A stretch of 61,444 nt of DNA from Candidatus Uhrbacteria bacterium (lineage in GTDB: Bacteria; Patescibacteriota; Patescibacteriia; UBA9934): the NCBI GenBank assembly GCA_943350635.1, contig CALRAI010000002.1:1-61444 (forward strand), written 5' to 3'. Every line of letters starts with the position of its first letter. Positions within the stretch are counted from its first letter, which is position 1. A program made the position numbers and the translations under genes. The notes beneath the pieces were generated by a model. That model saw only the letters and a program-made list of their open reading frames with translations. It searched no databases and was not told the origin of the DNA. Positions 27,301 to 57,900 of the stretch are shown in pieces.

Positions 27301-30300
27301 TGGGAAGGGTCAGACACTTCGGGATACCAGCTGAAAACATGGAACCTGTTGGAATCAGATATGGGCGCAACGGCATACACATATGCCGACAGCGGAGAAA
27401 TCAACACCGCACCAAACGCGGCACCATGCACCACATGGGTTGCAACAGCAACAGGAATTACGTGTAACGACGACATTGCTGGAGTACTCACGAGCGACAG
27501 CGCAGACTGCGACGAACACGACGATATTATTACCAATCCAGACTGCCGCGAATTCTACGACGCGAGCGGAGTAATTCATTACCGTTCCTGGAGTAAAACG
27601 GTCACTGTGGACTCCGCATGTGTCACGTATCGCAAAACCGATATCGCATCGTCGTCAACCACCACTGCGAGTGCCAACTGCGGGAACTCTGGAGGATACT
27701 TTGATTCGGTTATCACACAATGCCGATACTACGGATTTGTGGAGGAGAGTATTGAATGTTCCGCGAGTGAATCAGGATGTCGGGAATACACCGGTGGCCG
27801 AAGTCGCGATAGCCGTCAGGCATTGGCGGAGTATTTTGAAGACGGCCTCACCAGTTGGGACGCAGCAAGCGCAACGAACGTCACCGTGTCCAACGAATCC
27901 ATCGCAACGGACGGTCACTCATTGCTTTCCAACGCAGAATCGGTATGGACATATGTGGGGGATTACGGATCCACCTGTGCAAGCGACGACGGATGTACGC
28001 CAACCGCCGGAACCCTTGGTGGCACGTGTACCGCAGCGAATGGCGATCAGTATTGTGGAACATTAGACGACCAACTCTACGGAGATAAAACCTACACACT
28101 ATCATTCTGGGCAAAAGGAACTGGCACGCTCATGTTTGGCTTCGATGAATCGTTGATTGACGGAACTCGTGCTGTAGATGTGTCCTTTGTGCAGGATCCA
28201 ATTACGCTCGACACCGAATGGCATGAATATTCCTACGGTCCGCTCGACATGAAGAGCAGCGAATACCCAGATTTTGGAGACGGATCGTCTGCTCTCGTCT
28301 TTACTCCAAGTATCGGCGGCACATTCTATTTGGACAACGTGATGCTTCGTGAAGGAGAAGATAATATTACGGTTATTAAGAATTCATGGATTACCCCAGC
28401 GTCGTGTGATCAAACTGCAGAAGGAACCGTATCGGACCAATACATGTTGGGATGTCAGGAATATACGGATCAAAATGGTGCCGTGGCGTATTTGAAGAGT
28501 TTCAATTCGTTGTGTGAAGAATCCCAAGTGGGATGTTCCTCATATTTCATGACGCAGGAATCGGACGCTACTGGCGCTGCGGTATACGGCGCATATTGTT
28601 CCATGGTCGATGGCAGTTCCACGGTGTATGGCGCAGAAGCAACGAGTGCGACGTCGTGTTATTACGCGCTGAATAGTGCGAAGACAGCGTACGACACAGA
28701 CAGCCAGTTCCTGTGTACGATTGGTGTTGGTCAGACAAGCTGTGAATTCGATCTGAATTGGTATGCAACGCTTGAGGATCTCACGTCGTATCACCCACAT
28801 TTGTCCTATAAAGGATCGACAGTGATTTCTCCAGCGGACAAAGATGTGTTCCTTGTGGTGAACTCCGATGTGGAATGTACAAGCGACGTTGCCGGCTGTA
28901 CGGAAGTTGGGTTGCCAACATTTAGTCAGGATCACACGAGCGTGGCAAGCTGGACGAGCACGTATCTCATGAACATTCCTGCCGACTACGCCACCACGTT
29001 GTGTACGGAAAAGGGATTGTATTGCAATGCATGGACGGATGGGGACGGCTCCACACACTACTTTAAGGATCCGCAGGATCAAACGTGTGAATATCGCACC
29101 GATGTTACGGTTGACGACGTCACATACGACGGTTGGTTCAAGACAGGTCTGGATGAATGGTGTGCAACGACAACAACAACAGCAACAGATACCGATGGAA
29201 CAATAATAACAACAATCACGCCACAGTATGTCATCGGCGGCGACGTTTCTGGAATTTGGCGCAATGGAGACGACGACTACAGCAATTGGGTAGGAACATG
29301 TACGGATGAATACGATAGCTGTACGGAATATCAGGATCTGACCGATCTTGATTCGGACGACATATACGGTGTTTCAGACGGCACAGGATACACATATCTC
29401 AACAACGATTCGTTAATGGACAACAGTTTGCCAGACAGTCAGAAATGTAATGGGCAGGTGAGCCAAAAAGAAGGCTGTGCCTTGTTCAACGATTCCAGCG
29501 AGCCGTCCAAAACCGCAAACATGAGTGCAACATACGTGGCAAGCAAACATGCCGACGTCTTGTTTGGAGGTGCACCAAACGGCATGGTGGATCCTATCGA
29601 CTGTGAAGACGACAACACGACTATCACCACATCCACAGGTGCAACAGTAGACTTGTGTGCAAAGCGTTGTCGGTACATCGCGGACGATTACTACGACATT
29701 AACGGTTCAGACGAAACGTACATCTACGACGGCTCGTGTTACGACAATACGGATTGTCGTCCACTCGCGAGTGAATCAAACGAAACGATTGATGGATCGT
29801 GTATTTCAACGAGCGACACCGCACTCATGCTGGAGAACGATGCAAACACCGTGCTCAAGGTGGATCGGGACCGTGAGTGTAGCGAATGGTTAAGTTGTTC
29901 AGATTCTCAAACCACCTGGGACGAGCGCACCAATAGCTACAAAACCATTTGTGGCGACATCGGCCTATGTACCAAATACGCCACAGATTCTGGCAACGCA
30001 TCCTTCTGTTCCGCATGGAGCAGCGATGCGCCAGCAGAAGTATTGGATCAAGACGTGTATTCCGAGCGTGATGTTTCGTGGTACGGCGAAGACTATTCCG
30101 GCTACGCCATTCCCGGCACCTTGCCAGTAGACCAGCTCACCCAAAAGAACGTTGCTCCACCAGCGGGGTATTGTAATACGGCATCATCAAGCGATAGTAC
30201 GATTGCGGCAACAAACGGTATCGAGTGTAGTGACGACAGTGAATGCCGACCGGATGGCGGAGGTACTAGCGAACATACGTACTGCCCGAGCGAATCAGAA

Positions 30301-33255
30301 GATATGTACCGCTTGGCGTATGTCGCTGGCGCATGTGACCCCATCGCAGATGATTATGGCGACCTTTGTTACGTTGGATACTGTGCGAATACAGGCTCCC
30401 CATGTTCGTCAACGGAAAGTTGTGGAACCGATGGCGGATCATGTGTTATCGGTTCATGTTATGAGGTTTCGACAACGGCATGTGCCTCTGATACGGACTG
30501 TCCAACGTCTGGCGATACGTGTTTGAGTGGATTTTGTGCAACACAAGGGTATGACGCGATCATCGACGACTATCTCGCAAGTTTTCCAGAGCTTTCCTGC
30601 GACACCGGTGAAACAATGTACCCCTCCGTCAATTTCAAAGCCGGAACCTGTATGCGCAACGAATGTATTCTCACCCCAACCGGCAGTACCTTCGACGTTG
30701 CCACAGCCGAAGCCAAGAGCTGCCGCGGCTACCCAGAAATTAACAGCCCGTTCCCGAATAGTGTGGTAGAGACGTGGATTAATCCAATCACAAAAGTAGA
30801 ATTAACAGAAGGTGTTGAAGGTTTTATTGGGGCGGTGCCGTATACGTATTTAAGCAATTTTGAAAACGCACAGGTTTGTCAGCCCGGAGAAGACTGTAGT
30901 TGTTCATACAAAAAAGTGACATACGGCGAACAAAACGTCTTGAAAGTATTTGGTCGCGATTCGGATTTCCCAACAGGAAGCTCTGACATCGGTGTGTGTG
31001 TTGGCGGAGATTATGACGGCGCTTTCTGTAGTGCGAACAATACATATTACAATGACTCCTCTACAGCAATTGATGGACACGCCATTGTGAGCGAATCCAG
31101 CTCTTGTGAGTCCGCTACTTATGGTAGTGGCACGTGTACATACCCAAGTCTAACAAACGATGTTGTTGGTATGGACGGGTATTGTCTGGAGCGCGATAGT
31201 TCAAATAATATTCTTGGGGACAGAGATCTCAATGCCTGTCTTACCTGGCTGCCGGTAGATCAACTTGCGGGATCAACAGACCTTTATGCGAAATATACGA
31301 GTGCGGGTTTTGACGGAGAGGCATATTACTGTGGAGAGGTGAACCTCTTCAATAACGTCTATACGTTGTTTGGATGCGCTGAAATCGATGGAGGATCTTC
31401 TTGCTCAAATGTGGTCGTCGTTGATGCAGATAGTAGTAACTACACAGATTGTAGATTCAGTATGCAATGCGCAGACGGATTCTTTGCTGTTGGAGGCCCG
31501 GCAACTACGGATGATGGGAGTTCAACGTCATCAGCGCAGTGTCAGAGTGGTGTGGCTGCTTGTCCATACCGTTGCGTACCAATGAACTCGGTACACTCCG
31601 GTTCTGGAGAGAAATGCGGACCGCCATCATCGGATACGTACGAGCATATTTTGGATACCGGTGATTCTTGCTATCTTGATACTCCGTTTTACTTCACTGG
31701 TGATTACGCAGAAACGGATACGCTGCTGAATGACTATTCGGATTGTATCTTTTACGGTGCTTCCGGTGATGACGAACTTGGAATTACCGACTTCTCGGAG
31801 TCGGCTGACCTAAATGGTGATTCAACGGAAGAAAATGGCGGTGATGACTACTATATCGAAGGAGGATCTGGTTCCACGGATGCTTTATACCGAGGTGAGG
31901 CATATCCCACTTGTCAGTCGCTTCTACAAGTAGCGAATAATGATACTAGCGAATATAACTACGCGTGGACGGATCGTGTGGCGAACTCGATGAGCGCATC
32001 GTTTCCGTCTATTGATGCTGGAAATCTTACCTATACGTACTCTGTTGCTAACACTCCGTTCGGCGCATCTATTTCGCCAGCAGATGCGGAAGCAGGGCTA
32101 GACAGCGCGGGGGATCCGGTGCCGGCCGTTGTTGCAGCGTGTGGTTCTCCATCGTTATATGGCGGCGCTTCGCCTGCGGAAGAGGTAATTGATCCAACAC
32201 TCTGTGACGACGACACCGCAGATTCCTACGGGCCACTCTTTACGAATGACGGCACACCTCAGGCTCGTGAATATATTGCCTGGACTGCATCACGTATTGC
32301 AAAGAGTGATGGAAGTTATAGCGGGACGCTCGAAACATCGGAAGACCGAACGGATATCGCAGCGCGTTTGCAGCAGTTGTTTGCGAAGCCGCTTGGGTTG
32401 AATGCGTGGAGTAATTCGGGGTCATTGAGCGTTGGCGGATCACTGATCGGGACGTACGGTTCACGTGTTGATACTTCTTCGTACGGAGGCGGGGATTTCG
32501 ATTGGGATGTGAGAGCTGCCGAAGGCAACCCTCCCTCTGTCTGGGCCGTTGATCTCAATAATTGTTACAACGACGAGTGTGAGGAGGATGAAGCGCATGC
32601 GCTCACGTTGAACGAGCAGAACGAGGGGGATGTAGAGAGTGAACAATTTTACAGAGCGTATCTGAAATTTTACGCTGCAGCAGATAAAAATCAGTTACCG
32701 ATTCGGAAGGTGATGGTAGATTGGGGTGACGAGCCAGGAGAATATACAGGCTCCGACTCCAACGATAACTTCTATAAAAATCATCGTGGGTTGAATCCAG
32801 GAGAAGAGACATCAATTTGCGATAACTCTTCTTTGAAACCAACTTCATACGAATGGGGAATGACAGGCGATAGCTGCGATTCCAATTACTTCAGCTACAA
32901 CCACATCTACACCTGTAACCCTGCCGGATTGGATGAATGTGCATTAGGTGACGACGGCATGATTAGCAACTCTCCTTGTACCAACGACGGCGGCAATTCC
33001 TGCACCTTCCGTCCCCGCGTCCACATCCGCGACAACTGGGGATGGTGTACGGGAGTGTGTACGGATGGAAATGCCGCCGACGAAGGAGGATCGGCAGATG
33101 GGTGTTTTACGGGAGAAGATTATGGAATAAGTGATAGTGTGAGTGCGCAGAGAAGTGAGTGCGCTTACGGGATTTATCCAGATGAGACTCTTTATCCAGA
33201 TGTTGGAATAGATCCTTGGGTGTATTACGATGGATCAATAACTATTACACCATAA
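24322..33255 (+). CDS. 2977-aa exported Cys-rich giant protein with CBM4/9-like jelly-roll modules
   Basis: Uninterrupted 8.9-kb ORF with a signal peptide or anchor (ATGMLMIVMSAFSSSLLLYPNTARA). About 126 Cys by hand count. CBM-like signatures are NMISNPSFEKDEDEDGVPDGWV...LWFDQLQLE and a second ...FYLDNVMLRE. Confidence 0.85.
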   Translation: MKERLRKFLATGMLMIVMSAFSSSLLLYPNTARAEMPVIQITSLSDVAKWLVDALKAIGESALLASISTALINTTTYAADRLAYDAAVFVASGGNGEDPLFENRSVGDYFSDYGASVAGEALGAIDDTGILGNFSLCEPNASGVTLAFKFGIQAAFTRPEPSCDFNAVKENWNGFLSDVESMGEDPFGKNSLITTKLSGAFNPGENDFSVGIQLYSDVLNKAQTDAANSTLRTMFAGFFKEKTAFINGKVETPSEMIQKRLDDSIGESQEIRNKIQVQALADPKILTQIAKHAGSVFTNTLLSKVTEKLYDGLFGGIDQTDIDPFNADSVGTGNSSDARAAFREFLTATPVSIDNFSQLGEFSACPSSGKSLYNCVSDTNLVTAIGRAEAGSAMTIAEAIEEDLLNSSWPLIPSSDTARDQDQFCYSYGYCHGNLVKLRKARIISTGWELAAESAANSAGSPVTLGEVVDAFNDCSDTGELDDNHPWCHLIDPNWILKYPATQCKAQVYGEQLVASVTDQRQDVCVDMPSCIDTDSNGQCTGGYGYCVREQNTWQFRGEECPDYYASCLTLEDPEGTEKNFIMNTTNSDNCTADNAGCLWYATQMEDDGTDTSTFAFPDYSDTTVFAAAEAATDIYKNRIYFTSAVAECDSSGAGCRELVSRADGVTLNMISNPSFEKDEDEDGVPDGWVMGAADEQFSIDSTVMLDGSSAVNPGTGIFYQPGIVLTQGAEYTYSVYARQGSSTGVATSALLTLGRSDGVAIDLNGYALEGDCNIYASEENILEIVGTPSSTTYERFSCTFTVPTLEDSTVEIAAFVDVMGGDLWFDQLQLEQESEASDYHEGYSDTVLDLSYVKVAPAYLGCTGDPDTDATNCADYATMCLETDVGCSLYTPSNGDPSVAGITDSLDECPEECVGYDTFKQEATNYEPDGEFPVYFIPDSADTCSAQAVGCDEFTNIATEASSYFTSLRSCITPTQAALNSTTSDDSAVFYTWEGSDTSGYQLKTWNLLESDMGATAYTYADSGEINTAPNAAPCTTWVATATGITCNDDIAGVLTSDSADCDEHDDIITNPDCREFYDASGVIHYRSWSKTVTVDSACVTYRKTDIASSSTTTASANCGNSGGYFDSVITQCRYYGFVEESIECSASESGCREYTGGRSRDSRQALAEYFEDGLTSWDAASATNVTVSNESIATDGHSLLSNAESVWTYVGDYGSTCASDDGCTPTAGTLGGTCTAANGDQYCGTLDDQLYGDKTYTLSFWAKGTGTLMFGFDESLIDGTRAVDVSFVQDPITLDTEWHEYSYGPLDMKSSEYPDFGDGSSALVFTPSIGGTFYLDNVMLREGEDNITVIKNSWITPASCDQTAEGTVSDQYMLGCQEYTDQNGAVAYLKSFNSLCEESQVGCSSYFMTQESDATGAAVYGAYCSMVDGSSTVYGAEATSATSCYYALNSAKTAYDTDSQFLCTIGVGQTSCEFDLNWYATLEDLTSYHPHLSYKGSTVISPADKDVFLVVNSDVECTSDVAGCTEVGLPTFSQDHTSVASWTSTYLMNIPADYATTLCTEKGLYCNAWTDGDGSTHYFKDPQDQTCEYRTDVTVDDVTYDGWFKTGLDEWCATTTTTATDTDGTIITTITPQYVIGGDVSGIWRNGDDDYSNWVGTCTDEYDSCTEYQDLTDLDSDDIYGVSDGTGYTYLNNDSLMDNSLPDSQKCNGQVSQKEGCALFNDSSEPSKTANMSATYVASKHADVLFGGAPNGMVDPIDCEDDNTTITTSTGATVDLCAKRCRYIADDYYDINGSDETYIYDGSCYDNTDCRPLASESNETIDGSCISTSDTALMLENDANTVLKVDRDRECSEWLSCSDSQTTWDERTNSYKTICGDIGLCTKYATDSGNASFCSAWSSDAPAEVLDQDVYSERDVSWYGEDYSGYAIPGTLPVDQLTQKNVAPPAGYCNTASSSDSTIAATNGIECSDDSECRPDGGGTSEHTYCPSESEDMYRLAYVAGACDPIADDYGDLCYVGYCANTGSPCSSTESCGTDGGSCVIGSCYEVSTTACASDTDCPTSGDTCLSGFCATQGYDAIIDDYLASFPELSCDTGETMYPSVNFKAGTCMRNECILTPTGSTFDVATAEAKSCRGYPEINSPFPNSVVETWINPITKVELTEGVEGFIGAVPYTYLSNFENAQVCQPGEDCSCSYKKVTYGEQNVLKVFGRDSDFPTGSSDIGVCVGGDYDGAFCSANNTYYNDSSTAIDGHAIVSESSSCESATYGSGTCTYPSLTNDVVGMDGYCLERDSSNNILGDRDLNACLTWLPVDQLAGSTDLYAKYTSAGFDGEAYYCGEVNLFNNVYTLFGCAEIDGGSSCSNVVVVDADSSNYTDCRFSMQCADGFFAVGGPATTDDGSSTSSAQCQSGVAACPYRCVPMNSVHSGSGEKCGPPSSDTYEHILDTGDSCYLDTPFYFTGDYAETDTLLNDYSDCIFYGASGDDELGITDFSESADLNGDSTEENGGDDYYIEGGSGSTDALYRGEAYPTCQSLLQVANNDTSEYNYAWTDRVANSMSASFPSIDAGNLTYTYSVANTPFGASISPADAEAGLDSAGDPVPAVVAACGSPSLYGGASPAEEVIDPTLCDDDTADSYGPLFTNDGTPQAREYIAWTASRIAKSDGSYSGTLETSEDRTDIAARLQQLFAKPLGLNAWSNSGSLSVGGSLIGTYGSRVDTSSYGGGDFDWDVRAAEGNPPSVWAVDLNNCYNDECEEDEAHALTLNEQNEGDVESEQFYRAYLKFYAAADKNQLPIRKVMVDWGDEPGEYTGSDSNDNFYKNHRGLNPGEETSICDNSSLKPTSYEWGMTGDSCDSNYFSYNHIYTCNPAGLDECALGDDGMISNSPCTNDGGNSCTFRPRVHIRDNWGWCTGVCTDGNAADEGGSADGCFTGEDYGISDSVSAQRSECAYGIYPDETLYPDVGIDPWVYYDGSITITP

Positions 33256-42087: not shown

Positions 42088-42120
42088 AGGAAAGCGATAA
42101 GATAAGAGAAAGATAATGAT

Positions 42121-42243
42121 AGAATTCCGTCATTTTCGGTCAGTTTCGGTGCGCGGAGAGCAAAGCTCGTGAAACGTACTTCATGGTACGTTGAACGAGT
42201 TTGCGAAGCCGCAAGCCGAAAATGGCCAAAATGCCGGAATTCT
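42121..42243. repeat. 123-nt extended hairpin whose apex is a third copy of the ACGTAC-N6-GTACGT motif
   Basis: The outer arms AGAATTCCG/CGGAATTCT, CATTTTCGG/CCGAAAATG and CTCGTGAAACGTAC/GTACGTTGAACGAG pair. The apex closely matches 9007-9036. Confidence 0.5.
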
Positions 42244-42281
42244 CTGTTTGCGTGTAATCACGCTTTAGGGCATACTCTCCC

Positions 42282-42623
42282 CGCGGGGTAGAGCAGCCAG
42301 GCAGCTCGTCGGGCTCAATCGCAAGAATTGCACTCATGGATCCTTATGATCTTTTTCTTGCAAAGGGCTGCGCGTAACGAAAGTCACGCGTGAACTTCTG
42401 TCAAATTCGGGGAAGCCTGTAATGGTAATCCCGAGCCAAGCCTTGAGCAATCAAGGAAGGTGTAGAGACTTGATGGCAGACGCCCAAACCAATCATCGTG
42501 AAAGCGGTGTGCGACGGGTGAAGGGAAAGTCCAGACCAACAAATTCGATTCGTCGAAGTAGCGAAAGCTATAGTGGTATGCATAACCCGAAGGTCGCTGG
42601 TTCAAATCCAGCCCCCGCAACCA
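42282..42623 (+). tRNA. initiator tRNA-Met (CAU) interrupted by an intron in the anticodon loop
   Basis: Exons 42282-42315 and 42581-42623 join to a sequence almost identical to E. coli tRNA-fMet. The joined form has the C1-A72 mismatch, a GGG/CCC anticodon stem, the loop CTCATAA and an encoded CCA. Confidence 0.9.
42316..42580 (+). ncRNA. group I intron (IC3-like, tRNA-intron type), no ORF
   Basis: The 5' exon ends in U and the intron ends in G. Core strings match the Azoarcus/Anabaena tRNA introns from memory: GTCAAATTCGGGGAAGCC, AATCCCGAGCCAAGCC, GGAAGGTGTAGAGACTTGATGG, GTAGCGAAAGCTAT. Confidence 0.85.
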
Positions 42624-42675
42624 AAATGTCCTCCGTCGCAAGACTGGGGATTTTTTGTTATACTTCTCTCTATCT

Positions 42676-43461
42676 ATGGCGCACATCGTCTCGGTAGTAA
42701 ATCAGAAGGGCGGCGTGGGAAAAACCACCACATCCATGAATCTTGCAGCATTTTTGTCGCATCTGGGAAAATCTGTACTCCTCGTTGATCTTGATCCGCA
42801 AGGCAATGCCACCAGTGGTTTTGGCATGAAGCCCACCGAACTTTCCGGAACCTACGAAGCACTTGCAGGCACGCACCAGGTTCGCGATCTTATTGTCGGT
42901 ACGGCGCATCCTGGCCTTGCGCTGCTTCCTGGCGGCCCAGATCTTGCCGGTTCTGCGGTGGAACTTGTTACGGAATTCAACCGTGAGCGAAAGCTGGAAG
43001 CCGCACTTATGGCGGTGCGGAACGACTACGACTACATTCTTATCGACAATCCGCCGTCGTTGGGCTTGCTTACTATTAACGGCCTTGTCGCGAGCGACAG
43101 CGTGCTTATTCCGGTGCAGGCGGAATACTACGCGTTGGAAGGACTTGGACAGCTCATGCACACCGTAAATTTAGTGCGTGAACATCTCAAGCCAAACCTT
43201 GGTATCATGGGGGCAGTGATTACGATGTTCGATCCAAGAACAAACCTTTCGAATCAGGTGCTTCAGGAGCTGTACAAACACTTTCCGGGAAAGATTTTCC
43301 GTTCGGTTATTCCCCGAAGCGTTCGTTTAGCCGAAGCACCAAGTTTTGGAAAAACCATTTTGCATTACGACGCAGAAAGCAAAGCGGCAAAGGCATACGA
43401 ACGTTTAGCACGAGAATTTTTAGTGCGCGAAGAATCGGGGACCGCAACGGTAAATGGATAA
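42676..43461 (+). CDS. parA: chromosome partitioning ATPase ParA/Soj
   Basis: Deviant Walker A motif NQKGGVGKTTT. The start was placed at MAHIVSVV. Confidence 0.92.
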   Translation: MAHIVSVVNQKGGVGKTTTSMNLAAFLSHLGKSVLLVDLDPQGNATSGFGMKPTELSGTYEALAGTHQVRDLIVGTAHPGLALLPGGPDLAGSAVELVTEFNRERKLEAALMAVRNDYDYILIDNPPSLGLLTINGLVASDSVLIPVQAEYYALEGLGQLMHTVNLVREHLKPNLGIMGAVITMFDPRTNLSNQVLQELYKHFPGKIFRSVIPRSVRLAEAPSFGKTILHYDAESKAAKAYERLAREFLVREESGTATVNG

Positions 43462-43464
43462 TCT

Positions 43465-44418
43465 ATGCAAAAGACCCAAGGAGGGTTAGGACGAGGACTC
43501 GGTGCATTATTGCCGCAACACGCCAATCCGCAAATGTACGGACAATCGTCGGCTGTTCATACAGCAGCACCAGAGCCAGCATCGGCGCCAACACCTATAC
43601 CGATGCGCCAAACGCCATTTGAGCCATCGCCCACAGTAAGCGTTGCGCCGGTGCCTCGTATTCACGGGAGACTGATGCACATTTCTCCAAATAATATTGT
43701 CGCAAACCCGCGTCAACCGCGCTTGTATTTTGCGGAGGAGGATCTGACGGATCTCATGGCAAGCGTAAAGGAGCACGGTATTTTGCAGCCACTCGTTGTG
43801 ACATTACGAGGGGACGGAAAATACGAACTCATCGCCGGTGAACGTCGTTTGCGTTCTGCGAGAGCCGTTGGTTTGGAAACGGTGCCGGTTATTGTGCGTG
43901 AAGCTAACGATCAGCAAAAGCTGGAACTCGCACTCATCGAAAATATTCAGCGGTCGGATCTCAATGCGGTAGAAGAAGCCCGTGCCTACCAGTCCATGAT
44001 GGACGACTTTGCACTCACGCAAGAAGACGTTGCTGGCCGTGTGGGAAAGAGCCGATCGCAAATTGCGAATACCGTGCGTTTGCTCGACTTGCCAGCCGAC
44101 ATGCTGGTTGCCGTCATCGATGGCAGGCTCACCAAGAGTCATGCACGAACACTGCTCTCCGAACTCAACGATGCAAAACGTCGTGATCTCTTCGATCGCA
44201 TGATCGGCAGTGGCATGAGCGTGCGTTCTGCAGAATCATCGACGAGTCGGAGACAATCCACTGCAAAAGATCCAAATATTCTCGCGCTCGAATCCGCGCT
44301 TCGCGAAAAACTTGGAACGAAGGTTACGATCGACACCAAGGGAACCAACAGTTCAATCACGATCCATTGCTACTCCAAGGAGGATCTTGCTGCAATGATT
44401 CGCAGGCTCAACGGATAA
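43465..44418 (+). CDS. parB: chromosome partitioning protein ParB/Spo0J
   Basis: ParB box (LQPLVV...IAGERRLRSA), an HTH motif (QEDVAGRVGKSRSQIANTVRLL) and a Pro-rich N-terminal extension. Confidence 0.92.
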   Translation: MQKTQGGLGRGLGALLPQHANPQMYGQSSAVHTAAPEPASAPTPIPMRQTPFEPSPTVSVAPVPRIHGRLMHISPNNIVANPRQPRLYFAEEDLTDLMASVKEHGILQPLVVTLRGDGKYELIAGERRLRSARAVGLETVPVIVREANDQQKLELALIENIQRSDLNAVEEARAYQSMMDDFALTQEDVAGRVGKSRSQIANTVRLLDLPADMLVAVIDGRLTKSHARTLLSELNDAKRRDLFDRMIGSGMSVRSAESSTSRRQSTAKDPNILALESALREKLGTKVTIDTKGTNSSITIHCYSKEDLAAMIRRLNG

Positions 44419-46373: not shown

Positions 46374-49300
46374 ATGGCGAAGAATAATAAGCAACAACCT
46401 GGCGGAAGTAGGAATATTCCTGCCGCAGAACCACCAGATCTAGAGCAGATTGGTCGTTTTAAGGAATTCATGAATCTGTGTGGAAAACTCCGAGGAATTA
46501 TTGTGCGCGCTGCCGACGTGGATGCTGGAGAAGCTCGAGAGAAGGTGCTCGCAGAGGCCGATGCCGTTCTTGTGGAGGCGCGAACACTCGGGCCCCAAAT
46601 ATATGCAAAAACTGCAGGCGATATTGATATTAAAAAGCTTCTGAAGCGCGATTTGCCAAAGGAAATTGGAGAAGCAAGAACAAAGAATACGAACGATGTA
46701 GAAAGCGCAGCGCGAGCAGCAAAAATAAAGGCCGATGCCGCAGCAGCAGAGGCTCAACTTGAAGCCGAGCTCGAAATGGAACAACGATTTGCGGACGGCA
46801 CAGAAACGGATGACGATATTCGCTTCATGAATGCAAAGCGAGAAAAAGAAATTCGAGAAAAACTTGAGGAACAAAAGGGGGAAGCGCGCAAAGAAATGCG
46901 AAAAACTGAGCCAGTGCTTGATGCTGCTACAAAGCAAATCGTAGATGGATTTCTTGACGATGCGGTGTTGAATATTGAGTGGCTTGAAAGCACTCTCATT
47001 GCGCTTCATGCGCAGCTCGTTGAAAACGAAGCGGTGTTGACTGCGAAACATATCAATCCAGAGAGCGATCCATTCATTCAGTTTTTCAAAGGGCACATTC
47101 ATCAACTTAAAAGCAGAATCGATAAGCTTCGTCTAGGCGTTGCGGCGAAACAGCAGGAATTAGAACAACAAAAAGCGGCCAAAGACGCAGAGGCTGCACA
47201 ACAGCAACAAGCAGAGCCAAAAGGGGGAAAGGCAAAGAATTCGGTTCAAGACAGAAAGGCGGACGAGCCAGAGTCGTTGGAGGAACTAGGATTGCGATTT
47301 GAAAACACTATCGCTGCGCTGAGTGATCGCGTTCCTGAAGTGTGTAGTATGCCAATTGGCACGCAGAAAGAGCTAGATGCTGCGAGCGAGGCGCTGGCGG
47401 TGTTGAAGAGAGAGGCTTCTGATTGTGTCGCGGAGTATAAGGCAAAGATCGGTGAGCCAATTATTCGGCCATTATTTCGAGATTTTAAGAACCCTACAGA
47501 TCGGGATGAATCGGGAAGGGCATTTACGAAACTTGATAATGAACGAGCGGCGTTCCAAAGCGGATTTTTGGGGCATAGAGACAAGAACGTTCTTGGAAGG
47601 TATCAAGAACGAACGCAGGAGCTCTCTGCTCGTCGTCGCAAGCTGAACGATGTGAGGCGCGCCGAAGAAGCAGCGCAGCAAGCTGCTGATACTGCGGCAC
47701 AAGAATCAAGAAGAACAGAACTCGAAGCAAAATGGGAAGCGGAGTTTCCAGCATTTGAATTACGCGTTGCGAAAATAAGCAACGCATATTTCGATGTGTT
47801 GAGAATTTCAGGGAAAGATGGAACGACGAAAAGAAAAGATGCGCTGGAGGCGGTGAAGAAGATGCTGGAAGATGCTCGAGAGCCGTGGCTTGCCATGAGG
47901 GACGGTGCGCCAAGGCCGCGCTCAAAGGAAGAGGAAGGATTGGAGAAGAATAATCTTGTTTTCAACACACGACGCAAGCTCGAATTCATGTCGAGCGAAG
48001 TTGAGAAAGAAATCAATATCGTGAAAACTCGAGGAGGATTATCGTCGGACAAGCTGATCAACGATTGGATCGGATCTACGGTGCTTGTGAGTCAGTTATG
48101 GAATCCCGATTCGTCGATTGAGGATCGAGGTGCATTCTTAGTGGAGTATCTGAAAGACAATATTCTTGAAGGTACCTCAGAATTTGAGCGGATGATTCCT
48201 GAATCAGCACGAGCAAATTTTTCAAAAGTATTAAGGAACTCCGGAGTGATTCGAGATATTCAAGAAAATGTTCGAGCAGATAGGCGTTTTGCACAACAAG
48301 AGGAAGAGCGTCTCCGGGCAGAGCTTTCGTGTTCGTTGCTCGATCTTTTGCGAGGAAGAATCGACCAGGAATTCGATGCGGCGCGCGAGAGACTTCGAGC
48401 TGCATCATTCTGGAAGCAAAAAGTGAGTGAGAAAAATAGCGATCGATTGTTGCGATTTGGCGCAGAAATGCCAGACGAAGAGCTAGCAAAGTTCGTCACC
48501 GATATTCCCGCATTCCGTGCGGCGGTTGCGCCGTTTGCTCTTGCGCGAGCAGCGGCACGAAAATGTGAGGACGACATGCTGATGGTGAAAGAAGCTGAGG
48601 GAAATCTTGACGTTGATGCAATACGAGCGATGCTTGGGGAATGGAAGGAGAAGGACGATCGACGAAATGAGTTGCAAAGAGAGGCGCTGTTCTCGGAAGG
48701 CTGGGGGGATATACCAAAGAAGAAACGTCGGGGAATGATACGGGGATTCTTTGAGGGGAATACACGAATTCTGAAAAAGGTTGCGGATCCAGCATTTTCG
48801 GCAGTGGTTGCGTGGGCAAACGCACAGCAACTTGCCTTTGTGACGCGAGATTTTGTGCGTGTGGTTCTTGAAAAAAATCCCGATGCTGCCGCTGTACTTT
48901 CAGACGAATTGCCAAAAGGATTTTTGAAGAGTTCGGAGTCGGATGCTGCGGATCAAGGGGATTCTGAGCCGGTAGCTGATACGTCGGTTGGTGGTGATGC
49001 CGGCGGTGATGCTGGTGTTTCTGACCCCGATGCTGATCCAGACGCTGAAGAAGCAGCAAGAGTTGCAGGACTTGCAGCTTTAGCTGCGCGGAGAGGCAAG
49101 GCAGCTGCAGCGCCAGTTGCGGATCCGGTTGTGGTAGCGGTTTTGGATCCGGCTATTGAGGCGGCGCGTATTGCAGCAGAAGCAGAACAGCGAAAAGAAA
49201 TCATTCGAACCGCAAGAAAAGAGACAATACGGGATCATAAAGATCTTATTAAGACAAGATTGTTTAGCGACCTCTTTTTCCAGGATCCTAAGGGAAGCAC

Positions 49301-51053
49301 TCGGGGAACAATCGGAAGTATTTTGAGCGCATTGTTGCTTCGTATTCAAAAGAAAGGAGAAATGGCGCGCTTGGGAAATAGCGATTCGTATCTTCATCAG
49401 GATCGGATCGACGACTTCAATTACGTTATTGATTTCGTGGATCTTCACGACTTCGAGCGCAGATTGGCGAGTGTGGTCGCAAAGTATCCAGTAATGATTC
49501 CAGCGCCAGTGATGAATATTCCGCCAGCGCCAGTCGTCGCGCCTCCTGCGGCACCACATGTTTCCATTCATCATCCACCACTCAATTTGCCGCCGTTGCC
49601 ACCAGCGCCTCCGGTTGCTCCTCCTGCGCCGCGTGTTTTGCCGCCAGCACCTCCTGTTCGTCCGGTTACTGCACGTCCCGTCGTTGCTCGTCCACCGGCA
49701 CCTGTGATTGAGTCTGTCCCTGTCGCTGCTCCATCGGCTCCACGCGTTGAAGTTACGCCTGTTCAGCCGGTTGCCGCAGTATCGGAGCCGATAATCTCTT
49801 CAAATCCTGGAGAACAACCTCGTCCAGAATCGGCTCCAGTTGTTCCACCATCACAAGAGTTCGTTTCGCTTGGTGCAGATCCATTTGAGCGATTCTTCGG
49901 TCCGTCGCGAGCATCTACGTCACGAACGGAAATCGTGCCAGCTCCTCGATCATCAGTCATCCCCGCGCAGGCGGGGATCCAGTCTCGACAGGAATCAACA
50001 CGTCGAGTATCGGTGATTGAAAATACACCAGTCCCACAAAATCCTGCCGAGCTTCGCGTATCCGGATGGGCAAAGTCGATCCGCAATTTCTTTGGTGGAG
50101 GAGAGGCCGCAGACATCGCGGTTCGCGAAGCAACGGGAATGCCGTCGGATCGCACGCGTGCCGGCGAAGCACCATCAAATACAGAGGTGGCGTATCGCAC
50201 CCTGGGAAGTGTGTTGAGTGTGGTGGGAAGCGTGTTTGGATTCAAGGCATTCGGCGATGTTCCACGGTATTTGTCCCAATCCTTCTGCACTACAAACGAG
50301 CGTGCATTGTTGGAAGCGGATATTTTGAACGCGATGGAAACAAATTTCAGCGCAAAACAACGTGCTGGCAACGATCCTGAAGCAAGCTTGCGCGCAAATA
50401 GAGAGGCGGCTCAGCGAACGGATAGGGCAATCGCAACATCGGCATATTTAACCGATGCACAAAAGGTAGAAATGCGCGCGCGCGTTGCGGATTTGGAAAC
50501 ACGATACAGCGAGCGGACACGAGAAAACGTTGCAAAGCACAGCACGGAGCTTGCGAACGTGCTTGAAAATGCGGTGCAAAACCGTGTAACCGGTTGGGGT
50601 GCCGCAAAAGAAACAGCAAACTCCGCATTGCGCGCTATGGCATTTGTGGATGTACCGGTTGGCGCAGTTCGCGGTGTTACATACGGCGTTATGGCATTCC
50701 GTGAACGATTCGAGACTGCGGCAACAAGGAATCCTGATGCATCGTTTGTGGCAAAAACAGCAAGCGTATTCCGCGATACGTGGAACGAAACATGGGGAAA
50801 GCTCACGAAACAAACAAATAATTTCCGTGAACGGGTTACCAATGTTGGGGACGCTATGGCCACGATTGCTACTGCGGTTGGTATGGCGAGTGTTACAGTG
50901 GGCGCGTTGGAAGAGGCGCTTCCAGGATTGCGCTTGGCAAGTGCCGATGTGTCGAGCGGCATCGCGAATCTCATCGCGGAAGGTCGTCAGCGATTGCAGG
51001 AAATGGTGGACAAAGTACTTCCTACATACGAGCGCCTAGCAAAGCGAGCGTAG
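46374..51053 (+). CDS. 1559-aa coiled-coil / proline-rich protein with C-terminal hydrophobic segments (function unknown)
   Basis: Uninterrupted 4.7-kb ORF. It has about 1000 aa of E/K/A/R-rich sequence, then about 110 aa of a PPAP-type tract, then a C-terminal region with 3 hydrophobic stretches. Confidence 0.75.
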   Translation: MAKNNKQQPGGSRNIPAAEPPDLEQIGRFKEFMNLCGKLRGIIVRAADVDAGEAREKVLAEADAVLVEARTLGPQIYAKTAGDIDIKKLLKRDLPKEIGEARTKNTNDVESAARAAKIKADAAAAEAQLEAELEMEQRFADGTETDDDIRFMNAKREKEIREKLEEQKGEARKEMRKTEPVLDAATKQIVDGFLDDAVLNIEWLESTLIALHAQLVENEAVLTAKHINPESDPFIQFFKGHIHQLKSRIDKLRLGVAAKQQELEQQKAAKDAEAAQQQQAEPKGGKAKNSVQDRKADEPESLEELGLRFENTIAALSDRVPEVCSMPIGTQKELDAASEALAVLKREASDCVAEYKAKIGEPIIRPLFRDFKNPTDRDESGRAFTKLDNERAAFQSGFLGHRDKNVLGRYQERTQELSARRRKLNDVRRAEEAAQQAADTAAQESRRTELEAKWEAEFPAFELRVAKISNAYFDVLRISGKDGTTKRKDALEAVKKMLEDAREPWLAMRDGAPRPRSKEEEGLEKNNLVFNTRRKLEFMSSEVEKEINIVKTRGGLSSDKLINDWIGSTVLVSQLWNPDSSIEDRGAFLVEYLKDNILEGTSEFERMIPESARANFSKVLRNSGVIRDIQENVRADRRFAQQEEERLRAELSCSLLDLLRGRIDQEFDAARERLRAASFWKQKVSEKNSDRLLRFGAEMPDEELAKFVTDIPAFRAAVAPFALARAAARKCEDDMLMVKEAEGNLDVDAIRAMLGEWKEKDDRRNELQREALFSEGWGDIPKKKRRGMIRGFFEGNTRILKKVADPAFSAVVAWANAQQLAFVTRDFVRVVLEKNPDAAAVLSDELPKGFLKSSESDAADQGDSEPVADTSVGGDAGGDAGVSDPDADPDAEEAARVAGLAALAARRGKAAAAPVADPVVVAVLDPAIEAARIAAEAEQRKEIIRTARKETIRDHKDLIKTRLFSDLFFQDPKGSTRGTIGSILSALLLRIQKKGEMARLGNSDSYLHQDRIDDFNYVIDFVDLHDFERRLASVVAKYPVMIPAPVMNIPPAPVVAPPAAPHVSIHHPPLNLPPLPPAPPVAPPAPRVLPPAPPVRPVTARPVVARPPAPVIESVPVAAPSAPRVEVTPVQPVAAVSEPIISSNPGEQPRPESAPVVPPSQEFVSLGADPFERFFGPSRASTSRTEIVPAPRSSVIPAQAGIQSRQESTRRVSVIENTPVPQNPAELRVSGWAKSIRNFFGGGEAADIAVREATGMPSDRTRAGEAPSNTEVAYRTLGSVLSVVGSVFGFKAFGDVPRYLSQSFCTTNERALLEADILNAMETNFSAKQRAGNDPEASLRANREAAQRTDRAIATSAYLTDAQKVEMRARVADLETRYSERTRENVAKHSTELANVLENAVQNRVTGWGAAKETANSALRAMAFVDVPVGAVRGVTYGVMAFRERFETAATRNPDASFVAKTASVFRDTWNETWGKLTKQTNNFRERVTNVGDAMATIATAVGMASVTVGALEEALPGLRLASADVSSGIANLIAEGRQRLQEMVDKVLPTYERLAKRA
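49956..49983 (+). repeat. 28-nt REP-like palindromic element embedded in frame in the 1559-aa CDS
   Basis: It is identical to 44435-44462 and is translated as VIPAQAGIQ within the ORF. Confidence 0.7.
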
Positions 51054-53814: not shown

Positions 53815-54900
53815 TTACGTTTTCCTCACAAACTGTTTTCCCCCAACATCTTCAATAAACCCAAGAAGTTCCAAACCCGTCAGCGCAACAGAAGCGGCGC
53901 TTGTGGTGAGTTTTGCTTTTTCGATTGCCGTGTCGATATGCACCGGCACTGCGCCAAACTCTGCAAACAATGCAATTTCGTCGGGAGATCGTCCAATAGG
54001 CAGGAATGCCGTTGCACTCGCGCTTGGCGCCACGTTCATCCCAAGCACCTCAAAAATATCCCGAGCTTCGGTCACAACATGCGCGCCATGCTTCAGAAGC
54101 TCATTTGTCCCTTTACTCATCGCTGAATCGATCATTCCCGGCACCGCAAACACTTCGCGATTCTCACTCGTCGCCGATGTGGTCGTGAGCAATGTTCCCG
54201 ACGGTACTCCGGCTTCAATGGCTAACGTTCCGTGACACATTCCTGCAACAATGCGGTTGCGAATGGGGAAATTGTGCGCAAGGGGCGCCATCGTAAATTG
54301 AAATTCACTGATGACGGCACCACCACCATCGACGATCGCGTCACTCAGTTCAAAGTGCCGCGTATTATCTACTCCAAGAATTCCGGATCCAAGCACCGCA
54401 AGAGTGATCCCGTTGGCATCGAGCGCTCCACGATGACACGCCTCATCAATCCCATACGCCAAGCCGCTCACCACGACAATTCCTGCATTCGCACAGTCGA
54501 ACGCTAACTTCTTCGCAACACGCAAGCCATACTGCGTTGCGTGCCGGGATCCCACCATGGCAAGATGTTTCTTTGCCGTTGACGGCAACGTTCCTTTGAC
54601 GAACAACAGTGTGGGTGGTGTGTGGATAGTTTTGAGCATCTCGGGATACTCGTCGTCCGCAATCGTTACCGCACGAATTCCGTGTTTTTCCATGATGTCT
54701 ACAAATTCTTGCGGATCATGTTCTGTACGAAATTTCAGAAACTTTGGTACGTCTTGCGGTCGAATTTTTGCAGCAATCAACTCATCTGCGCTTGCATTCC
54801 ACGCATCCTTGGGATCCGAAAAATATTCAAACATCACCGCGTTGGACTTTGGTCCAAACCACGGAACATTCGCGATCGCAATAGTATAAGGGGATGTCAT
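53815..54900 (-). CDS. dprA: DNA processing protein DprA
   Basis: DprA Rossmann-like core (VVSGLAYGIDEACHRGAL...FPIRNRIVAG) and a C-terminal winged-helix-like domain. Confidence 0.9.
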   Translation of the reverse strand: MTSPYTIAIANVPWFGPKSNAVMFEYFSDPKDAWNASADELIAAKIRPQDVPKFLKFRTEHDPQEFVDIMEKHGIRAVTIADDEYPEMLKTIHTPPTLLFVKGTLPSTAKKHLAMVGSRHATQYGLRVAKKLAFDCANAGIVVVSGLAYGIDEACHRGALDANGITLAVLGSGILGVDNTRHFELSDAIVDGGGAVISEFQFTMAPLAHNFPIRNRIVAGMCHGTLAIEAGVPSGTLLTTTSATSENREVFAVPGMIDSAMSKGTNELLKHGAHVVTEARDIFEVLGMNVAPSASATAFLPIGRSPDEIALFAEFGAVPVHIDTAIEKAKLTTSAASVALTGLELLGFIEDVGGKQFVRKT

Positions 54901-57900
54901 GTCGGAAATTTTATCATGCTATACTTGTTCCAGTATGCGAAAGCTCTGGGAGTTGCTTCAGCGTGTGGGAAATTGGTGTGTAGGGCATAAAGCAATCATG
55001 GTTTTTGTGATTGCAGTTTTTGTATTGAGTGTTCCGTTCCATTACACAAATGCTGTAACGGATTCTCTTTTTACCAAGTTCCTCTCCAATCCAATCGACG
55101 TGACGATGATTACGCTGGCAGGAATCATTCAGGTGATCACTGGCGCCGTGGGAAAACTTATCTTGTTGATTATCGAAGTGATTGTCATTCCTGTTCTTGG
55201 ATATAACGGTTTTTACAACAGTCACATTACGAATCTTGGCTGGTCGTTAGTACGCGACGTCGTGAACATGTTCGTCGTCGTGATTCTGCTCGTCATCGCC
55301 ATTATGACGATTATTGGCTACTCCAAAGCAAACTGGACGCAGCAACTTCCAAAGCTGTTTATCGCCATCGTGCTCGTGAACTTCAGCAAACTGATTTGTG
55401 GATTCCTCATCGACGTCAGCCAGGTGATCATGTTCACCTTCGTAAACGCCATTGTTTCCATTGCTGCAGGAAACTTCGCGTCGATGCTTTCCATGAACAC
55501 GTTTGGACAATTTGGTGCGGAGTTTATTGATACGATAAACGAAAAGGGAACGGGACTAGAAGCGTTTGAATTCCTCATGGGTGCATACCTTCAATTCATC
55601 GTTATCCTCGCAATCCTTGGTGTAATGTTCCTTCTTGCAGCCGCCTTCATTTGGCGCATCGTGGTGCTGTGGATTCTTATTATCATGTCGCCATTAGCGT
55701 TCTTCCTTATTGGCGTCAAAGACATTTTCCATGCCGCCGAAAGCAGCTATACGCAATGGTGGAGCAAATTCACGAGCGCCCTCACCTTTGGCCCAACAAT
55801 GGTGTTCTTCCTCTGGCTCGCCCTTGCCGCCTCGTCCGGTTCAAACCTCGCCCAAACGGAGGACTTCCCCATGCCCGACAGCACCGCCGACTCCGGCATT
55901 TCTTTGGAGATGTTCTCTCTCGACAACTTCCTCGGCATGTTCCTCGCCCTCGCAATTCTCATTGCCGGCATGCAACAAGCCTCCGCCAGCGCCCAAGCCA
56001 TGGGTGGCTTTGCGAGTAAGATGTTGAGTGAGGATATGGGAAAGGGATTGGTGAAGGGTCTTGCTCGACCAATGAAATCCGCAAAGTCACTTTCTCGTGG
56101 CGCCGCTTCTCAACTTGCCAAACCTCGTGACCTGCCATTTGGTTTGGATAATTTGCGGCAGAGCGCTGTAGAAAAGGGGGCGAAAGGTTTGGCGAATGCT
56201 GGTGTTGGTTTGCAAAAAGCAGGATTCGGTGCAATTGGTGGTGCAGTAAGTGGATTGGGTGGATATGCTGGAGCAAAGGCTGCTGAAGGAAGAGCAGAAA
56301 TGAATAAGGCCGGTGCAGAAGAAATGAAATACCGTACGCAGACTGACGATCAGAAAAAGCAATTGCATGAAAACTTGTTGAACGGTGCATCGAGCGATCC
56401 TGCCAGGTCGAAGGGCGTAAATATGTACGAAGGCATGGATCAGAACGAGGCAATGGCGATGCGAAGAAAATTTCTTACCAGTCCTGATGAACGAAAGAAA
56501 ATCGAGGATGCTTCAAAGAAGATGCATGGCACTGGTCCGAATAAAAAAGAGGGTCAAGCACTTACGGACGCCGTGAATAAAGACATGGATGATTTGAAAA
56601 ATAGCCAAATGGAGTTTGCAGATTCCGACGACGGAAAGCGCTTGCTCGGACTGAGTGACGATGAGAAGAAGCTTGTGAAGGGCATGAAGATGGAGAATCT
56701 ACACCTCATTGAGCCAAAAGAGGGCAAGAGAGATGCATTTGAGGCTGGTCCAGCTGGTGACGAAAAGTATAATAAAGCAAAACAGAAGGCGATGAAGGCC
56801 GCAATCGACGACACCGAAGGCTATAATCATAAAATTCATGGCGGCCGTTCTTTGGCCGATGCAAATGTGCGCGCAGTTCTCGCTCAGCAATCCTCTGGTC
56901 GAACCACTGCGGACGGAACGGTGATTACAGCGTTAGATGATTTGAAAGCACAGGGTAATGCTGCCCAGAAGGAAGCGCTTCGTACTTCTATTGGTGCGGA
57001 TGATGTAAAAAAGAATTCTGCCGATATGGCATCGGTGGTGAATTCAGGAGCTTTGATTCCTGGAAATGCTAATGGTACGCCAGCAACTGGAAAGGGTGGC
57101 GCGGTTGCAGAGGCTGTTCGTGAGAGGGTGCGAAATGCTCCGGTTGGAGGGGTGACGAATGTTGATGGTATTGCCGCCGGAAACTTGCACAATGCTGGTT
57201 ATAATAATGATGAGGTATTGGGAGATCGTTTTGGCGCTGCTGCAGCTGCGGGTGGAGCGGCGTTTAGTGAGGAACATCGTGCTCGTGCTGGGGCAATGGT
57301 TACGGCGAATGCCGCGAATGCTGGATATCTCCCTGCACAGTCCGCTGGTACGGCAAACGAAGTGACGCATCTCATTGCTAATTCAACAAGTAAGGAAGGA
57401 ATTAAAACATTGCAGACAAGCATGAACGCTGAAACAGATCCAGCAAAACGTGCACAAATGCAGAGAGGACTTGATAACATTACGCAATCGGTGAAGGCGG
57501 AGAGGGCTCACGCCATTGCGAATGGTGGCGCAAACAGCGATCGTGCAAAGAAGATGAAGCAACTTGAAGATCAAGCAAGTGAAGCTGGAGGAGGAAGATA
57601 TGCTGGTCGTCCAGCTGCGCCACCAACACCACCAAACAGCGGAAATAATAATGGAGGCAATGGTGGAGGGGGTAACCAAGGTGGTGGAAACGGCGGTGGT
57701 AGCCGAGGAGGAGGTAATAGAGGCGGTGGCAACCAGGGAGGCGGGGGAAATAATCGTGGTGGAGGCGGCAATCGTGGAGGAGGAAATCGAGGAGGTGGAA
57801 ATACTGGCGGCGGAAACGGGGGAGGCGGAGGTGCTGCAGGTGGAGCCGCAGGTGGCGGAAACGGGGGAGGGGGTAATCAGGGCGGTGGCGGAAATACTGG

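Follow-up and report, generated by a model that had tools for sequence, protein, structure and literature searches.

A predicted endonuclease-less group I intron of the cyanobacterial type in the initiator tRNA gene of an Uhrbacteria-like bacterium

The group I intron in the initiator tRNA (tRNA-fMet) gene of cyanobacteria was reportedly described by Biniszkiewicz, Cesnaviciene and Shub in 1994 from Synechocystis, Scytonema and Dermocarpa, and is said to splice itself in vitro. The cyanobacterial and plastid tRNA-Leu(UAA) intron (Anabaena/Nostoc) is also a small, IC3-type intron of an anticodon loop, that of another tRNA and at another site; the Azoarcus intron, which self-splices in vitro, is inserted after the anticodon and not before it as in the case reported here. 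That case is a 265-nt intron in the initiator tRNA gene of a 61,444-nt stretch of metagenomic DNA assigned to Candidatus Uhrbacteria (the whole stretch is hereafter the window), a lineage of the Patescibacteria or candidate phyla radiation (CPR). Judged by homology, insertion site and predicted fold it is a member, lacking an endonuclease gene, of the cyanobacterial-type tRNA-fMet group I intron family.

The tRNA-fMet intron of Synechocystis PCC 6803 is 655 nt long and encodes the 150-residue endonuclease I-Ssp6803I (PMC1995217). The intron interrupts the initiator tRNA in its anticodon loop and is frequently misannotated (PMC11622646); homologues of I-Ssp6803I were described in 2012 as “generally encoded in cyanobacteria” (PMC3384342). 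Group I introns in CPR tRNAs are mentioned only in passing (PMC8172020), and we found no description of a split tRNA-fMet gene from this radiation in the literature. The earlier reports of CPR introns share with the present case the host radiation and the fact that the genes were missed by standard RNA gene finders; they deal, however, with rRNA introns carrying LAGLIDADG enzymes or leave the tRNA unspecified, whereas here the gene, the site, the structure and the family are defined.

The window intron resembles the cyanobacterial tRNA-fMet intron in its host gene and its site between U33 and C34, both seen directly in the 244-nt intron of Scytonema hofmanni (locus L063), as well as in the GGGC guide, the P1–P9 layout and the terminal G. 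Cyanobacterial members are 66–73% identical to it over about 240 core columns. It differs from them in its CPR host, its own P1 extension, a longer P8 and an A.A mismatch near the splice-site helix. The endonuclease open reading frame (ORF) is present in Synechocystis and absent from both the window intron and Scytonema, a genus that reportedly figured in the first description of the tRNA-fMet intron.

The second close comparison is with the tRNA-Ile(CAU) intron of Azoarcus sp. BH72 (subgroup IC3, PMC8890501), in which the strings GTCAAATTCGG-GAA-CC, GAGCCAAGC, AGGTGTAGAGACT-GA-GGCA and GTGAAGG-A-AGTC are near-identical to those of the window. This likeness spans J3/4–P4, P4'/J6 and P7/P3', and the P7 3' region of the window intron matches Azoarcus GTGAAGGCATAGTC. 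The Azoarcus intron is likewise small, lies in a tRNA anticodon loop and has a 3-bp exon part of P1, but it has another tRNA and another guide, and the P1 extension and two 3' hairpins belong to the window intron. A preliminary description of this locus had quoted core strings close to the Azoarcus ribozyme, and these are indeed present and close to the published molecule; two of the helix labels given there need correction. The string AATCCCGAGCCAAGCC, assigned to P6, runs from P4' across the P4/P6 junction into the first part of P6, and GTAGCGAAAGCTAT, assigned to P9.0/P7, is the terminal GAAA-capped P9a hairpin, the 3' strand of P7 being AAGTCC at 42527–42532. The core strings match those of Azoarcus and the layout (no P5abc, a P9.0, a short P1) fits the Azoarcus/Anabaena type; on these characters the intron is a candidate member of subgroup IC3.

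With introns allowed, ARAGORN reports a tRNA-Met(cat) at 42282–42623 having a 265-nt intron after gggct, and the exon limits of the preliminary description proved exact. The gene and the hairpin that follows it are made up as follows.

42282–42315, + strand: exon 1, 34 nt, ending ...TCGGGCT; the 5' side of the acceptor stem, the D arm and the first half of the anticodon arm up to U33.
42316–42580, + strand: group I intron (RF00028), 265 nt, no ORF, beginning CAAU and ending in the terminal G (omega G) 42580.
42581–42623, + strand: exon 2, 43 nt, beginning CATAACCCGA; the tRNA from C34 A35 U36 on, with the T arm (GCTGG/CCAGC), the 3' side of the acceptor stem and CCA.
42628–42656, + strand: terminator-like hairpin with U6 after it, in the interval separating the tRNA gene from parA; fold energy -11.5 kcal/mol, z -2.75.

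Joined, the exons give a 77-nt bacterial initiator tRNA with an encoded CCA. The C1xA72 mismatch, the three consecutive G-C pairs at the foot of the anticodon stem and the CAU anticodon, all of which had been pointed out before, are present in this 77-mer along with A11:U24, and 71 of its 77 positions are identical to a sequence of Escherichia coli tRNA-fMet entered by hand. The splice sites were set by exon sequence. Both intron ends share the dinucleotide CA, and we place the cuts after U 42315 and after G 42580 because only this choice gives a 5' exon ending in U together with an intron ending in G, as had also been claimed. The joined-exon site then reads GCTCGTCGGGCTCATAACCCGAAGGTC and the predicted restored anticodon loop CUCAUAA. 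In its default mode ARAGORN found three tRNAs in the window, none of them at this locus, nor did the Rfam tRNA model detect the split gene in the window.

When the whole window was searched, Rfam model RF00028 (Intron_gpI) matched 42343–42555 over model positions 1–253 of 253 [51.1 bits, E 4.5e-10]. The earlier assignment to group I is thus upheld by this match, by a P1–P9 layout, by covariation and by homology to the cyanobacterial family. The predicted helices are listed below; in precursor numbering position 1 corresponds to window position 42282.

42313–42316, + strand: P1 5' strand, consisting of tRNA G31 C32 U33 and the first intron base C, with the 5' splice site after U 42315.
42365–42368, + strand: guide GGGC (internal guide sequence, P1 3' strand), in which G 42366 is the U.G wobble partner of U 42315.
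Precursor 32–35 with 84–87, + strand: P1 as drawn on the window sequence.
42321–42361, + strand: P1 extension, with P1a 42321–42327 paired to 42355–42361 (precursor 40–46/74–80, seven pairs) and a small hairpin inside.
42370–42391, + strand: P2 hairpin with a GAAA loop (precursor 89–97 with 102–110).
42397–42403, + strand: P3 5' strand UCUGUCA, followed by J3/4 AAU and paired to 42474–42480 (precursor 116–122/193–199).
42407–42434, + strand: P4 and P5, with P4 at 42407–42412/42429–42434 (precursor 126–131/148–153).
42415–42417 with 42424–42426, + strand: P5 (precursor 134–136 with 143–145).
42441–42456, + strand: P6 hairpin with a GCAA loop (precursor 160–165 with 170–175).
42465–42471, + strand: P7 5' strand G(A)GACUU with bulged A 42466; predicted guanosine-binding helix.
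42474–42480, + strand: P3 3' strand UGGCAGA, forming the core pseudoknot together with P7.
42481–42520, + strand: P8, 42481–42485 with 42516–42520 (precursor 200–204/235–239).
42494–42499 with 42504–42509, + strand: P8a inner hairpin (precursor 213–218/223–228), particular to the window copy and shorter in L074.
42527–42532, + strand: P7 3' strand AAGUCC, preceded by J8/7 AAGGGA (precursor 184 and 186–190 with 246–251, A185 bulged).
42535–42538 with 42574–42577, + strand: P9.0 (precursor 254–257/293–296), enclosing P9 and P9a.
42544–42557, + strand: P9 with a UUCG loop (precursor 263–267 with 272–276).
42558–42571, + strand: P9a with a GAAA loop (precursor 277–281 with 286–290).
42580, + strand: omega G (precursor 299), the last intron base.

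G 42365 could pair either with the first intron base, as part of P1, or with the first base of exon 2, as a minimal P10. An unconstrained minimum-free-energy fold of the intron recovers P1a, P2, P3, P4, P5, P6, P8a and P9a.

Support for this fold comes from covariation in an alignment (A1, MAFFT) of 59 homologues, none of which is more than 92% identical to another. In the alignment 86.6% of cells pair, as against 34.8–42.8% when the 3' partners are slid by one to three columns; 48 of the 73 pairs have changed on both sides, and the covariation score is 0.295 compared with 0.142 in shuffles, not one of 500 shuffles reaching the observed value on any measure. Pairing in P1 is never broken, its G-C, C-G and U.G pairs each occurring in 59 of 59 sequences and its fourth pair as C-G in 56 and U-G in three, and the guide GGGC is likewise invariant (59/59). 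All six pairs of P6 covary (89% of cells pair) and all nine of P2 have changed on both sides (90.6%), while double changes were found in four pairs of P3 (94.9%). The figure for P4/P5 is 99.1%, for P8, with four covarying pairs, 99.7%, and for P9a, again with four, 98%; P9.0 pairs in 97.9% of cells and has switched from C-G to U-A in six sequences. P7 pairs in every cell even though its outermost pair is G-C in 23 sequences, U-A in 22, A-U in seven and C-G in six. The pair G 42467–C 42531 and the bulged A 42466 next to it, for which a role in guanosine binding is predicted, are invariant in all 59. Only P1a and P9 fall low, at 42–44%, which we attribute to misalignment of hairpins of variable length by MAFFT.

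To find relatives we used the splice junction itself. Since an uninterrupted gene reads T-CATAACCCGAAGG and the gene split here reads G-CATAACCCGAAGG, the pattern GCATAACCCGAAGRTCNNNGGTTCRAATCC was scanned over one genome per species; it gave at least 120 matches, and all locus counts that follow refer to the matches listed. A proper exon 1 was located 201–952 nt upstream at 113 loci. Three others (L067, L089 and L090) are cut at the edge of the locus, yet the 3' end of the intron is visible, and L012 and L119 have lost their 5' ends at the locus edge. A split tRNA-fMet gene therefore occurs in at least 116 species of about 15 phyla. The complete split gene could be extracted at 111 loci, all with homologous introns inserted at U33|C34, and every one of the 111 has a U before the intron and a G as its last base. 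Four matches (L028, L048, L054 and L057) were set aside: they are 3' halves of tRNA-fMet, starting from C34, without an intron and without an upstream exon 1, and may be duplicated attachment sites left behind by integrated elements.

About 48 record titles are non-cyanobacterial. The split gene was found in Nitrospirota, Rhodothermales, Bacteroidia, Omnitrophota, Planctomycetota, Chlamydiota, Chloroflexota (Anaerolineales), Actinomycetota, Bdellovibrionota, Elusimicrobiota, Desulfobacterota, Gamma- and “Mu”-proteobacteria, Eremiobacterota, Auribacterota, Melainabacteria and two Patescibacteria; the cyanobacterial members include S. hofmanni UTEX 2349 (L063) and Trichodesmium erythraeum IMS101 (L015). 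The preliminary description held that tRNA group I introns are known mainly from cyanobacteria and plastids, with a few proteobacteria, which agrees with the literature but not with these genomes of at least about 15 phyla. BLASTN with the window intron also matched dozens of family members. Over about 240 match columns the window intron is 86% identical to that of L074, a Candidatus Uhrbacteria metagenome-assembled genome (MAG), 73% to that of Aphanothece and 66% to that of Scytonema. After L074 the nearest introns among those listed come from a cyanobacterium (73%), an actinomycetote (72%), a proteobacterium (71%) and a nitrospirote (70%), and the remaining CPR copy reaches just 69%; the relatedness of the introns thus departs from that of their hosts, as lateral spread would lead one to expect.

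Among the smallest group I introns of the set are the minimal introns of 201–221 nt in Omnitrophota and Planctomycetia (L024, L029, L046, L050, L061, L101 and L114), which lack the whole P1 extension, close P1 with a loop of 4–6 nt and show a G-C to U-A switch in P4. One contig, from a MAG labelled Acetobacteraceae (L042), carries exons and printed ends of a 244-nt intron that match several Nostoc genomes exactly; it is probably mis-binned.

The absence of an ORF from the window intron does not exclude it from the family, since 93 of the 111 introns measure at most 330 nt, which leaves no room for an endonuclease ORF. Eighteen are longer than 500 nt; a full-length ORF of 147–185 codons is present in 16 of these, a degenerate copy in one and a LAGLIDADG ORF in the last.

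Full-length intron ORFs: L003, L011, L014, L020, L021, L034, L035, L051, L064, L066, L068, L075, L080, L100, L107 and L108.

Introns with an ORF of the I-Ssp6803I type, PD-(D/E)XK, are about 620–700 nt long, lie at the same site and occur in at least 11 phyla. Their endonuclease ORFs begin at intron position 3–29, inside the P1 extension; the ORF begins further in in L002 (514 nt), whose copy is degenerate and of 90 codons, and in L113 (Desulfatirhabdium, 952 nt), which has the LAGLIDADG ORF instead. The ORF of L035, a Patescibacteria locus, matches PDB 2OST [E 1.6e-61] and Pfam PDDEXK_5 [1.6e-46]. We take 2OST, named in the PDB table only as “Putative endonuclease,” to be the structure of I-Ssp6803I. 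The tRNA-fMet intron and its PD-(D/E)XK endonuclease thus reach far beyond the cyanobacteria, more widely than the literature says.

The source sample of the window is a lake-water metagenome. Its nearest relative among the matches listed is L074 (CALRHV010000014.1), in which the order of genes is the same: M23 peptidase, split tRNA-fMet, parA, parB and relA-spoT. Neighbouring genes are about 77% identical in nucleotide sequence, and in L035, from a second Patescibacteria MAG, the split tRNA-fMet gene is again followed by parA. On this shared gene order the host of the window is taken to be a CPR bacterium near the Candidatus Uhrbacteria MAG L074. As the preliminary description had it, the split gene lies directly upstream of parA (42676–43461) and parB (43465–44418).

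The exons of L074 are 95% identical to those of the window, with no difference in exon 1, and its intron is 80–86% identical, while the intergenic DNA on both sides cannot be aligned (46–53%). The catalytic core (P3, P4, P5, P7, J8/7, P9.0, P9 and P9a) is 100% identical, and the differences in P1a (C-G to U-A), P2 (two), P6 (two) and the T arm of the tRNA are compensatory. An identical core and compensatory helix changes set between unalignable flanks indicate that ribozyme and tRNA are both under purifying selection; an insertion in decay would look different. A scan of metagenome contigs based on parA, for the presence or absence of the intron in close relatives, gave matches of at most 62% identity, none near a tRNA-fMet gene, and a check for carriage by phages gave no matches in viral contigs.

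A 6784-nt contig from a sister sample (run X2, depth 47) carries the split gene of 42282–42637 with only four differences in 356 nt. It represents a second, commoner population, and its remaining 6.4 kb cannot be aligned to parA–parB even at 80%; it is either a rearranged close relative or a case of recent transfer of the tRNA-plus-intron unit.

We conclude, with a probability of about 0.88, that the window holds a functional, endonuclease-less tRNA-fMet group I intron in the chromosomal initiator tRNA gene of an Uhrbacteria-like CPR bacterium. The gene would be transcribed as a precursor of roughly 342 nt; the gene is followed by the hairpin and U6. The intron would then fold into a group I core, in which the pairing of G31 C32 U33 and the first intron base with GGGC 42365–42368, which is seen in the sequence and invariant in the 59 homologues, should set a U.G wobble at the 5' splice site. 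By the mechanism of the family a free guanosine bound in P7 would attack after U 42315; terminal G 42580 would next occupy the same site, a P10 of 1–2 bp positioning exon 2, and ligation of the exons would restore the anticodon loop CUCAUAA. Ordinary end-processing would leave the 77-nt initiator tRNA, CCA included. Splicing of the window intron is thus predicted from its sequence and its family. This mechanism is a textbook one and nothing in our analysis challenges it. Lacking an ORF, the window intron would be unable to home by itself, and it appears to be vertically inherited in its lineage, as the nearest relative, L074, keeps the same gene order. The reach of the family into many phyla would be accounted for by endonuclease-bearing relatives, the target of the enzyme, the tRNA-fMet anticodon stem-loop, being almost invariant in bacteria.

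Several points weigh against a functional intron. The RF00028 score exceeds the curated gathering threshold of 50 bits by only 1.1 bits. Beside the splice-site helix the window copy has an A.A mismatch where 42 of the 59 homologues have a U, which in 35 of the 42 pairs with A36; this mismatch reduces the P10 of the window copy to about one pair. Its P2 contains an A.C mismatch. No sigma-70-like promoter was found when looked for on the + strand. The preliminary description had proposed a search for reads joining 42315 to 42581, and none from this organism turned up in the RNA runs searched, which contain no RNA of it. The only such joint in an RNA run (X17) was rejected: with five mismatches in each exon and different flanks, it comes from the uninterrupted gene of another organism. 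Another contig of X17, 97% identical over exon 1 and 126 nt of intron, is from an unspliced relative and may be RNA or DNA. Pieces of high depth over 42388–42483 in RNA runs are the conserved cores of other introns and not the window intron.

In four freshwater metatranscriptomes (X19, X20, X33 and X35) there are contigs 85–95% like the P3–P7 core with word depths of several hundred, and related small group I intron RNAs therefore appear to be abundant there.

One might see in the defects near P1/P10 and in P2, and in the lack of spliced reads in the runs examined, a dead relic that no longer splices, an uninterrupted second initiator tRNA gene elsewhere doing the work; the check for such a gene covered the 61-kb window and the source assembly rather than the whole genome. 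We consider this very unlikely. The core is 100% identical to that of L074 while the flanks are unalignable, every helix difference, that in the T arm of the tRNA among them, is compensatory, the window has no second fMet gene, and the assembly of the source sample has no intron-less form at 90% likeness or above. A protein cofactor may play a part in vivo, and if the intron were removed only with such help “self-splicing” would overstate the case. The weak P10 and the A.A mismatch beside P1 fit this idea, and many group I introns depend on chaperones or maturases in the cell. The core, however, is almost identical to those of the cyanobacterial tRNA-fMet and Azoarcus introns, both reported to be self-splicing in vitro, and no candidate maturase is encoded in or beside the intron, so that an obligatory cofactor seems improbable, though less so than a relic.

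A chimera of a tRNA gene and the intron of another organism, arising in assembly or binning, must be considered for any metagenome, the more so as tRNA exons are conserved repeats where assemblies are prone to break (contigs end at 42282 and 42615). It is scarcely credible here. A 24.4-kb Logan contig of the source run X1, an independent assembly, spans 42100–42615 without a difference, a second X1 contig spans 42586–42800, the split gene stands in the same gene order in L074, and the same structure occurs in 111 independent genomes among the matches listed.

A functional intron would raise the question of how far initiation depends on it. Besides the absence of a second initiator tRNA from the 61-kb window, no intron-less initiator form at 90% likeness or above was seen in the contigs of the source run, which can show presence and not absence. 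At 80% or above there is a single intron-less form, and because its depth is 5.1 as against 18 for the genome of the window it probably belongs to another organism. The split gene is thus plausibly the sole initiator tRNA gene of the window organism. We hold as evenly balanced the wider proposition that it is the only such gene of this reduced-genome bacterium, that initiation depends on a fixed, vertically inherited ribozyme that has lost its endonuclease, and that the family, with its I-Ssp6803I-type endonuclease, is among the most dispersed of bacterial group I introns (at least 116 species, about 15 phyla), spreading by way of a homing site, the initiator anticodon stem-loop, that is nearly invariant in bacteria. 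Such dependence, even if true, would not be new in kind, since in Synechocystis the initiator tRNA is already made through a tRNA-fMet intron (PMC11622646).

The kind of element is therefore already known, and what is new is a CPR host within a known family; a well-defined case is added to scattered remarks on group I introns in CPR tRNAs. The most useful by-products are the breadth of distribution of the family and a blind spot in annotation: because the split gene escapes default tRNA finders and the Rfam tRNA model, automated annotation would show this genome as having no initiator tRNA, and likewise those of the more than 100 species found.

The terminator-like hairpin at 42628–42656 was not called by a strict terminator scan; at the matching place L074 has a different hairpin plus a T-run. 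Just upstream of the tRNA gene, at 42121–42243, is a long near-perfect hairpin (GAATTCCG...CCGGAATTC) with an RNA fold of -77 kcal/mol (z -8.8), present in a single copy within the window. Relatives represented by contigs in runs X3 and X4 lack 42123–42268 and carry 31 other bases instead; other contigs in X1 and X2 match 42141–42233 at about 85%. The appearance of the hairpin suggests the insertion of a palindromic repeat element, similar to miniature inverted-repeat transposable elements (MITE) or repetitive extragenic palindromes (REP). The rest of the window consists of housekeeping genes (ValRS, TyrRS, ArgRS, NusA, GroEL and TopA) and three very large ORFs at 24322–33255 (2977 aa), 46374–51053 (1559 aa) and 54899–58144 (1081 aa), in which no Pfam domain was found save for a weak carbohydrate-binding match in the first.

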